Shown: piece after piece, positions 60,129 to 61,343 of the stretch
Numbering within the stretch: the stretch's first letter is position 1
Layout of the letters: each line of letters opens with the position of its first letter
NCBI RefSeq assembly: GCF_039654945.1
Contig: NW_027361716.1
Span: 11,904,001 to 11,968,000 of the forward strand
Direction of reading: 5' to 3'
Origin: Dendrobates tinctorius
Lineage: Eukaryota
Length of the DNA: 64,000 nt
Made by a program: the position numbers and the translations under genes
The notes under the pieces: model-generated
The model's input: the letters and a program-made list of their open reading frames with translations, nothing else
Told to the model about the DNA's origin: nothing
Databases searched by the model: none

Positions 60129-61343
60129 TGTGGCACCCCTGAGGGTCTGGTCACCACAGAGGTACTGCACCTCATCCAGAGCTGTGGTATCCCACACTCA
60201 GGTAAGGAGGGAACACCACACAGGACTCCTATCACTTGCACCCAATACACACCAGACTGGCCAGGAAAGGGTGTTGGGAGGCAGGTGGGAATGGTAGGTA
60301 GAGTGGGAGGAGCTTAGCAGTGGAGTGATAGCTAGGCATCCAATCAGATTGAGGAAGGTGACAGTTGGTGGGAGGAGTTAGTTCTGAGGTAAATAGATCT
60401 TTCCAGAGGGTAGTCAGTTGGTGACAGGATAGCGGAGGAGCAGGACTGGCGCAATGAGAGTCTCAGTCAGTGAGAGAAACATCCAGAGGGAAGCTCCTGA
60501 GAGAAGAGAAGGGGCCTTTGGGGCACGGATCGTGCGTTAAGCCAACCGTGGGACCCGCATCCTGAAACGAGGACCAGGTCGCAGTGAGGAAGCCGGCCCC
60601 TCAAACTAGTGGAGTACTACAAGGCTCAGCTAGAAAGCCGGAGGCTGAGGTGACTTTAAGTACCTCGGCCACAACCGTACACATTCCTAGCAAAGGTGGC
60701 TGTAGAGGATCCCGGGGCCTGACCCCTGTCGCCTGGTGAGATCTGTGGCTGCCGGCTTGGGGACACTGTGTGCGAAGGCGCAGGGCAGGAGAGAGAGGAG
60801 TGAACAGCGCAGAGAGACAACCTAGAAAGGTTAACACAAGGAGGAGTCCTGAAAAGGTGAACCCAATCTACCTTGGAGTTGGCTGGACCCCTCTCCCAGA
60901 GGACACAGTACCAAGCGGGGATTCAAGTAACAAGAAACTTGTGAGTAAAAATCCAGAAACTGCACCCGACTGTGTCCTTTGTCTTCTTACATCTCTTCTG
61001 CCATACACCGCACTCAATATCACCATCACCGGCTCAACTGCCCTGGGACACCGCTCTACCTGTGGAGAGCTTTACCATCCCCGCTGCCCTAACACCGTCC
61101 CAGAGGATCTGCAGAGCAGCGTCGGCTTAACACCCGCATTGCCGAATACCACAGGTGGCGTCACGAATCCCCTTTTCCTAATTCATTTTCCTACCATCTT
61201 CCCTCAACATCTGAACTTCCATCATTGACATTGGACCCCCAGGGCCACGGACCAGGTCACCATCACCACCGTGACACACTTCCCCTTTGAAAGAGCCTGA
61301 AAGGCCCGGTTCCGAGTAACCCCCGGCCCCGCTGGGCACTCCA
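60129..61343 (+). mobile_element. Solo Gypsy LTR
   Basis: tgtggcaccc...gggcactcca; 4-bp TSD taaa; 3' part shares blocks with the LTRs of 11925-21445. Confidence 0.9.

Follow-up and report, generated by a model that had tools for sequence, protein, structure and literature searches.

A Duplicate Primer-tRNA Acceptor-End Site Abutting a Predicted Pseudoknot in the LTRs of Ty3/Gypsy Elements of Dendrobates tinctorius

The LTRs of a very large Ty3/Gypsy family of Dendrobates tinctorius, referred to here as family A, contain an inner copy of the acceptor-end part of their own primer-binding site (PBS), and a predicted RNA pseudoknot ends directly at this copy. The inner site has a defined motif and position and is conserved, the helices ahead of it covary, its sequence follows the primer tRNA from family to family, and no short LTRs ending at it were found. 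The architecture is real and conserved, and its predicted function, judged from sequence, is that of an undescribed form of extended primer-template interaction. Binding of the tRNA to the inner site, in whatever role, is probable. The specific reading that we prefer, in which the inner site and the pseudoknot dock the primer tRNA without priming and hand it to the PBS, is given somewhat less than an even chance.

The window, i.e., the whole stretch of 64,000 nucleotides that was analyzed, comes from a host genome assembly of 6.36 Gb and contains five LTR copies, two of which belong to a decayed full-length element (Table 1). Assignment to Ty3/Gypsy was based on TG...CA termini, a 4-bp target-site duplication, gag, RT, RNase H, and integrase, and a PBS for a host tRNA. 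In the element at 11925-21445, which has TG...CA LTRs and a 4-bp target-site duplication, RVT_1 and RT_RNaseH were matched by Pfam and PNMA was below the cut-off; its integrase-like frame had no Pfam match, and an integrase match 3′ of RT was obtained in the gene-order test of families A and Thr (L424). The 5′ LTR of this element is interrupted by an inverted-repeat insertion and terminates in a GC-rich segment about 60 nt long (18954-19015) that is absent from its 3′ LTR; the LTR ends of L119 and L123 resemble this GC-rich end. Inverted-repeat insertions with 305- and 717-nt arms were seen at 19354-20583, 22499-24120, and 30847-33600, and among these features a TTAGGG-like tract lies beside a 390-nt tandem repeat. 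Two nested chromovirus-like Gypsy elements occupy 49638-58578 and 51526-55795, one with a chromodomain-like integrase end, and no tRNA-type PBS was seen in them. Since a poly(A)-signal motif lies upstream, the module is predicted to be in U5; L114 and L091 carry other PAS variants at the position of this hexamer. No transcript end was found for the family-A LTR in contigs of four presumed-RNA sequencing runs.

Table 1. Positions of the elements, LTR features, predicted helices, and primer-complementary sites in the window
Feature	Coordinates	Strand	Remarks
Decayed full-length Ty3/Gypsy element	11925..21445	-	PNMA-like Gag, RT, RNase H, integrase-like frame
True 18-nt PBS of the 11925-21445 element	18936..18953	-	18/18 to host tRNA-Ser(CGA) + CCA
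Solo LTR, Gypsy family A, TG...CA	60129..61343	+	4-bp target-site duplication
Likely poly(A) signal	60944..60949	+	Identical hexamer there in 27/30 loci
Helix a: 61043-61049 with 61097-61103	61043..61103	+	Compensatory pairs; encloses hairpin b
Hairpin b: 61053-61057 with 61066-61070	inside 61043..61103	+	Compensatory pairs
Hairpin-b loop = 5′ strand of pseudoknot helix c	61058..61065	+	
Second pseudoknot helix d: 61083-61087 with 61116-61120	61083..61120	+	
Hairpin h	61122..61145	+	Two-sided changes in 4/5 pairs
Helix c, 3′ strand	61149..61156	+	Last base = first base of inner site
Inner site, 12 nt, complements primer-tRNA 3′ end	61156..61167	+	Acceptor strand, discriminator, CCA
5′ arm of local hairpin (helix i)	61256..61260	+	95.7% of cells paired
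Second motif, complement of tRNA-Ser(CGA) nt 1-10	61266..61275	+	
Inner site, another LTR copy	63072..63083	-	12/12
Inner site, 3′ LTR of the 11925-21445 element	12121..12132	-	11/12
Inner site, 5′ LTR of the 11925-21445 element	~19210..19221	-	Decayed
Inner site, fifth LTR copy	~4237..4248	-	Decayed

The original prediction held that the first 12 nt of the PBS recur inside the LTR, exactly in two copies of the window and partially in three others, and that the primer is tRNA-Ser(CGA). The recurrences were confirmed (Table 1), and a single host tRNA-Ser(CGA) gene with exactly both ends was found. The 18-nt PBS of family A has 4,785 exact matches genome-wide. In the first 30 of these, picked by the PBS alone, an inner copy was present in 30/30 loci at 149-192 nt upstream of the PBS, with 0, 1, and 2 mismatches in 12, 14, and 4 loci, respectively, and at least 28,264 LTRs with the site were detected by a pattern that links the inner 10-mer with the domain following it. 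The 12-mer of the other family never came below three mismatches in a Ser versus Thr cross-test, so the inner copy is not a chance match. Positions 1-9 match the tRNA complement in 49-55 of 55 LTRs and positions 10-12 in 41-55 (positions 11 and 12 in 47/55 and 55/55, respectively), and the equivalents of PBS positions 14-18 match in only 0-14 of the 55. The match thus ends at 10-12 nt, which corresponds to the acceptor strand plus CCA. The linker on its 3′ side varies freely in length and letters, and the inner site is conserved beyond this neighboring sequence, the point at issue in the proposed conservation check. A metagenome scan for the PBS yielded 29 loci, none of which was recognized as an LTR junction, and an 11-nt inner copy never came below three mismatches there.

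Five helices were predicted ahead of the inner site, a structure that the original prediction missed and that is new here. Helix a surrounds hairpin b, the loop of b pairs with the bases just before the site to form helix c, helix d crosses helix a, and h is a hairpin. Together with three helices of the distal domain, they have 92.7% of cells paired in 38 rows, and 59 cells show two-sided change, which is more than in all 500 shuffles and far more than in slid controls, with the structure derived from the tested sequences and the counts inflated by related rows. Family A2, with 1,269 LTRs and an RT 70% identical to that of family A, has four two-sided changes in helix c, amounting to a full compensatory swap, and the 12-mer still lies directly behind it; the four A2 rows showing the swap represent one evolutionary event. 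Helices a and d are also changed in A2 and the inner 12-mer is kept, so that between the two families the site is the same and helix c, the linker, and the LTR end are not. One apparent recombinant (L495) has a main-family pseudoknot domain joined at the inner site to an A2 linker and distal domain.

In 24/26 family-A, 13/13 A2, 25/25 Thr, and 3/6 Leu-392 loci, a helix of 6 bp or more has its last pair at the base preceding the inner site; random positions attained a 6-bp helix in 17-33% of trials. The helix abutting the true PBS averages just 3.6-4.8 bp. Three tandem duplicates and the truncated L022 were excluded from the abutting-helix, pseudoknot-free-fold, 5′-end-shuffle, and other-arm tests; the duplex-energy test excluded the duplicates and kept L022, and L058 was left out of the abutting-helix and 5′-end-shuffle tests. 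Rfam covariance models gave no matches in 60100-63999 and, on eight loci, three weak matches far below gathering, none of them on the module. HDV-like, pistol, and twister RNAs have characteristic topologies, and these folds were ruled out by strand order and Rfam.

A complement to the tRNA 5′ end had also been proposed, giving an LTR with complements to both ends of the primer. The claim held for the 3′ end in 30/30 loci and only partly for the 5′ end. The 10-mer is present in the solo LTR (Table 1), and its counterparts in the other four LTRs of the window are wobble-compatible or have one mismatch. Across 59 rows of family A, the LTR bases opposite tRNA nt 1-10 form Watson-Crick or wobble pairs in 51-59, those opposite nt 11 in 43, and those opposite nt 12 in 1, with about five of the 59 rows anchored on a wrong 5-mer yet counted. 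About 99% of shuffles score below the cognate run in A and A2, compared with only 85-90% for the Thr and Leu-392 sets, and the signal is absent in L396 by the shuffle test. tRNA-Thr 5′ ends score nearly as high as the cognate in A and A2. Five of the ten letters of the motif are explained by the local hairpin, in which the 61256-61260 arm also pairs with the last 5 nt of the motif, and by the fact that every acceptor stem is complementary to itself. Its variants are mostly changes of the CpG type. The 5′-end complement of family A is real but modest, and it is not a general feature across families. Complements to the D, anticodon, variable, and T arms did not exceed shuffles in U3-R, U5, or the leader.

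Mutual pairing of the inner site and the second motif, as originally envisaged, is not supported as a favored fold: it was found for 6 of 288 site positions in the pseudoknot-free fold. A different cis pairing deserves weighing, in which the inner copy, with no tRNA on it, sequesters an anti-PBS stretch that could occlude the true PBS. Bases 2-7 of the site can form a 6-bp helix with the first bases of the distal domain, each pair being compatible in 32-37 of 37 rows; the matching stretch persists in A2; and a PBS decoy would track primer identity as well. We nevertheless consider such a switch unlikely. No cis partner was found for positions 11 and 12, although they are kept, the variation of the partner is also explained by pairing with the LTR end, and the adjacency of site and pseudoknot is left unexplained. 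In addition, at the wobble pairs of the tRNA, the second motif fits the 5′ strand of the tRNA rather than the inner site (C in 55/59), and the Leu-392 second motif, an invariant 6-mer in 5/5 copies, behaves likewise. Loop variants of the second motif break a possible cis partner in 10-13 of 37 rows and stay compatible with the tRNA.

The two tRNA complements also bear on tRNA-bridged dimerization or packaging, another function put forward originally, in which the inner site retains a second tRNA that links two genomic RNAs, either through the near-palindromic 5′ ends of two tRNAs or by one tRNA spanning both RNAs. The 5′ 12-mer of tRNA-Ser(CGA) forms the strongest self-dimer of 14 host tRNA 5′ ends (-15.5 kcal/mol), and the inner site covers the acceptor strand alone, which frees tRNA nt 1-7. 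The Thr and Leu primers, however, self-pair more weakly (-10.3 and -11.1, respectively). The accessible text of PMC4974528 and PMC1635307 provides a precedent for bridging, and that of PMC4974528 and PMC11381356 describes Ty3 packaging as independent of the PBS segments of Ty3. On balance, a dimer signal is rather unlikely to be the role of the site.

The same design was found with other primers. The Thr family, found through PNMA Gag matches, has an 18-nt PBS for host tRNA-Thr(AGT), and its own 12-mer lies about 78 nt upstream of the PBS in 29/30 copies with two or fewer mismatches, directly behind an 8-bp helix whose other strand is in a hairpin loop. Positions 13-18 are lost from the inner copy in the Ser and Thr families alike, and one Thr subfamily has a fixed mismatch with the tRNA at position 10. 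In one Thr subfamily (L042-L071), 9 nt complementary to the 5′ end of tRNA-Thr overlap the inner site in 12/25 loci. Since the Thr primer has 789 gene matches in the host genome, primer scarcity is not the general reason for the module. The tRNA-Leu-primed Leu-392 family is of the Gmr1 type, with integrase before RT, a gene order not shared by families A and Thr. It has a 10-11-nt inner copy in 5/6 loci, which recurs in the 3′ LTR and sits behind a loop-pairing helix covarying between copies, the evidence for the module here being five copies. An inner Leu copy is also present in the single locus L396 and in the L273 group, and no pseudoknot was established for them.

No inner copy was detected in the tRNA-Ser(GCT) family (24 loci), the L310 group (5 loci), the SCAN-Gag families, or six other Leu-primed groups. 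Predicted duplex energies of tRNA 3′ ends with the 300 nt before the PBS are cognate-specific in three positive sets (-19.6, -21.5, and -23.0 for the cognate, compared with -11.3, -12.4, and -14.2 for shuffled sequences, respectively); in seven other family sets, they are flat, with no cognate signal. In an RT tree of 13 rows, built without A_L018 and Leu_L405 (nested foreign elements), a single clade of the six module-bearing rows was rejected (p-AU 1e-32) for a test group defined with a first tree already in view, and families without the module sit beside those bearing it. The module therefore arose more than once or was often lost, and because close relatives thrive without it, it is not needed for Gypsy priming in general.

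Further searches added no family: 20 weaker PNMA matches were the Thr family again or fragments, the PF20846 profile search found nothing, and in 30 loci with PF03732 matches, which resemble self-primed chromoviruses, no tRNA-type PBS accompanied by an upstream copy was seen. In the first Leu search, 28/30 loci came from one tandem array. Serial LTR-end plus PBS repeats were seen in eight Leu-primed loci (L285, L356, L387, L391, L392, L398, L401, and L405), and a 50-nt tandem array at G000:C2:301415-304373 has a full Leu PBS in each unit. The SCAN-Gag families (L218-L247) show several PBS variants differing within the 18 nt.

Because the inner site follows primer identity across unrelated families, a tRNA-related role is supported. 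A decoy or target in host silencing, acting through 3′ tRNA fragments or PBS-binding zinc-finger proteins, would track the primer too, and targeting of the PBS by 3′-tRFs and KRAB-ZFPs has reportedly been published (PMC7472051, PMC12853362, and PMC8931336). This explanation, together with that of a CRE-like DNA motif, is very improbable. Positions 13-18, against which the 5′ part of a 3′ tRNA fragment would lie, are missing from the site, and an extra site on the RNA or DNA of the element itself gives the host one more target. An RNA helix abutting the site would be superfluous for a DNA motif, and the sequence of the site is not the same from family to family.

Variants without the site remained rare. 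The family-A variant lacking it (L109/L111) has two copies genome-wide, and 8/26 sampled A2 copies with a mutated site share their flanks, which identifies them as a host duplication; both were therefore rejected as site-less lineages. The A2 site mutation was not found in the first 100 of the 1,269 A2 LTRs. The PBS of another tRNA-Ser, a tRNA with 186 gene matches versus one for the primer tRNA-Ser(CGA), has 29 matches compared with 4,785 for the cognate PBS, and 18 of the 24 loci listed are scattered family-A copies. The 3′ part of the primer has 113 matches, and the 26 sampled are elements and not genes. The rarity of non-cognate PBSs despite an abundant tRNA suggests determinants beyond the PBS. 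In a duplicated family-A copy with a different tRNA-Ser PBS (L314/L315), the inner site is 11/12 identical to the new PBS, and several A-to-G changes nearby suggest editing.

The inner site is preceded by CA plus 2 nt, like an integration end, and in L038 the 5′ LTR runs from the inner site directly into the leader, as would be expected if the site primed reverse transcription and yielded short-LTR progeny, or if solo LTRs started reverse transcription there. The 3′ LTR of L038 is full length, however. None of 28 family LTRs lacking the two bases after the CA ends at this CA, and among the first 30 of 270 looser matches there is likewise no LTR that terminates at the inner site with a target-site duplication. 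The priming switch and the solo-LTR priming suggested originally thus found no support, and priming from the inner site is the least credible of the explanations considered here.

Seven family-A duplications of the PBS plus distal U5 were found (L112-L115, L455-L457, and L458-L465). Four of them read from the LTR through exactly 18 nt of the PBS into distal U5 again, one with a target-site duplication, and were probably produced by plus-strand mis-transfer. The other three have junctions inside a shared 12-13 nt, including one element with both LTRs extended inside the target-site duplication and another with the 3′ LTR alone extended; a template switch at the foot of the pseudoknot may have generated them, or alternatively unequal exchange in the genome. 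The seven duplications show that the inner site mis-pairs during copying, a rare cost of carrying it, and they suggest a route by which it could have originated through PBS duplication.

This raises the explanation that the inner site is a neutral relic, a copy not yet decayed in LTRs that grew by capturing the old LTR end and PBS. The duplications with both junction types, the element extended on both sides within its target-site duplication, a Leu-392 LTR with serial PBS copies of the duplication type, and the resemblance of the bases before the inner site to the LTR end fit such a history. A relic is nevertheless improbable, since the site is the same in A and A2 despite the differences around it, loss is restricted to positions 13-18 in two families, and site-less variants did not spread. 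In A2 (L473-L498; 113 matches), the PBS extends to 24 nt, into the tRNA T loop, and its last 5 nt are then repeated, as if read-through past the usual stop had been fixed in a lineage; in L486, the PBS reads further into the tRNA than in other A2 copies.

Under the preferred reading, that of non-priming docking, only the acceptor stem of the tRNA would open on the inner site. The tRNA 3′ end would stack on helix c, and this helix would prevent extension in the manner of a template boundary, such as that of telomerase. In the Ser family, the freed tRNA 5′ strand (nt 1-11) may pair with the second motif, and the tRNA would then move to the true PBS by strand exchange. The duplex predicted for the true PBS is about 13 kcal/mol stronger than that for the inner site (-33.9 versus -20.8 kcal/mol). 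The module likely originated when the LTR end and PBS were duplicated in reverse transcription and then trimmed to the acceptor-stem part. Several observations count against docking: bases 2-7 have a possible cis partner, the predicted openness of the inner site in the pseudoknot-free fold is no greater than average (0.41 versus 0.48), one Thr subfamily has the fixed mismatch, many relatives lack the module, the Thr primer is abundant, and the second motif is not general. More broadly, the pseudoknot and the CCA-end complement could be a repeatedly evolved device of vertebrate Ty3/Gypsy LTRs, a tRNA-sensing switch that captures the primer through the acceptor arm, keeps it on a template where extension is blocked, and then either passes it to the PBS or switches the leader between translation and packaging; we regard this extension as possible yet doubtful.

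Among known systems, Ty3 of Saccharomyces cerevisiae, whose bipartite PBS was invoked in the original prediction, has an 8-nt 5′ PBS plus 3′ segments pairing with the T and D arms, according to the accessible text of PMC5371799, PMC4974528, and PMC11381356. As far as these sources go, Ty3 is likewise a Ty3/Gypsy element with primer-tRNA complements outside the PBS, and the tRNA-mediated dimers proposed for it through the tRNA 5′ palindrome would be a similar possibility here. Its additional segments, however, lie at the other end of the RNA, whereas the extra site here is in the predicted U5 and abuts a pseudoknot. A Ty3-type arrangement was not found: the PBS is a full 18 nt in 4,785 exact matches, the extra site repeats the same acceptor-strand target, and the T and D arms have no complement above shuffles in U3-R, U5, or the leader.

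Drosophila gypsy has a second 11-nt tRNA-Lys2 site that is non-priming and dispensable for cDNA synthesis, and its tRNA can bridge RNAs (PMC1635307, accessible parts). That site is near the 3′ end and pairs with the anticodon and T stems, and the accessible parts of the same paper mention no pseudoknot. The site described here differs from this type in that it pairs with the tRNA 3′ end and lies 3′ of the likely poly(A) signal. The self-priming of the Tf1/sushi type does not apply either, because the copy in the LTR has the same sense and the PBS matches a host tRNA.

In FIV, there is pairing with the tRNA 5′ end. U5 motifs of HIV-1 (A-loop/PAS) and RSV bind regions of the tRNA that become free once the PBS is annealed, and they determine which primer is used, as described in the accessible portions of PMC11181671 and PMC5371799. 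The second motif here would work like such U5 motifs. As far as those portions extend, the retroviral contacts target the anticodon loop or T stem, for which no signal above shuffles was obtained here, and a second CCA-end site is found instead. Ty1 has a functional 5′ pseudoknot in its leader that is needed for efficient initiation; in the accessible text (PMC4974528), this Ty1/copia pseudoknot is built from R and gag sequences and no duplicate PBS follows it. In HIV-1, aberrant plus-strand transfer misjoins tRNA-templated PBS ends and leaves a genomic record (PMC12657518, accessible text), and these misjoins resemble the four 18-nt-junction duplications and the A2 PBS read-through. The HIV-1 misjoins given there are defective proviruses, whereas the acceptor here is a conserved built-in site. 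No description of a duplicate acceptor-end site behind a U5 pseudoknot was found in the literature covered, with subscription papers, Repbase reports, and supplements mostly outside this coverage.

How a tRNA is chosen from hundreds and loaded while early priming is avoided is known in few viruses and yeast elements. Three lineages with three primers share a single short RNA design that can be tested and for which nature supplies compensatory variants, and the module is a candidate reason for the fidelity of a very large family to an apparently low-copy tRNA gene. The duplications are a genomic record of LTR growth by capture of the own PBS. For annotation, there is a warning that LTR boundary calls based on the PBS can err by 80-600 nt. 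As for tRNA genes of the host, tRNA-Thr(AGT) occurs with tRNA-Ser(GCT) genes in large tandem arrays at G000:C203:1.59-1.86 Mb, and large tandem arrays of another tRNA-Ser type are located at G000:C150:0.45-1.24 Mb.
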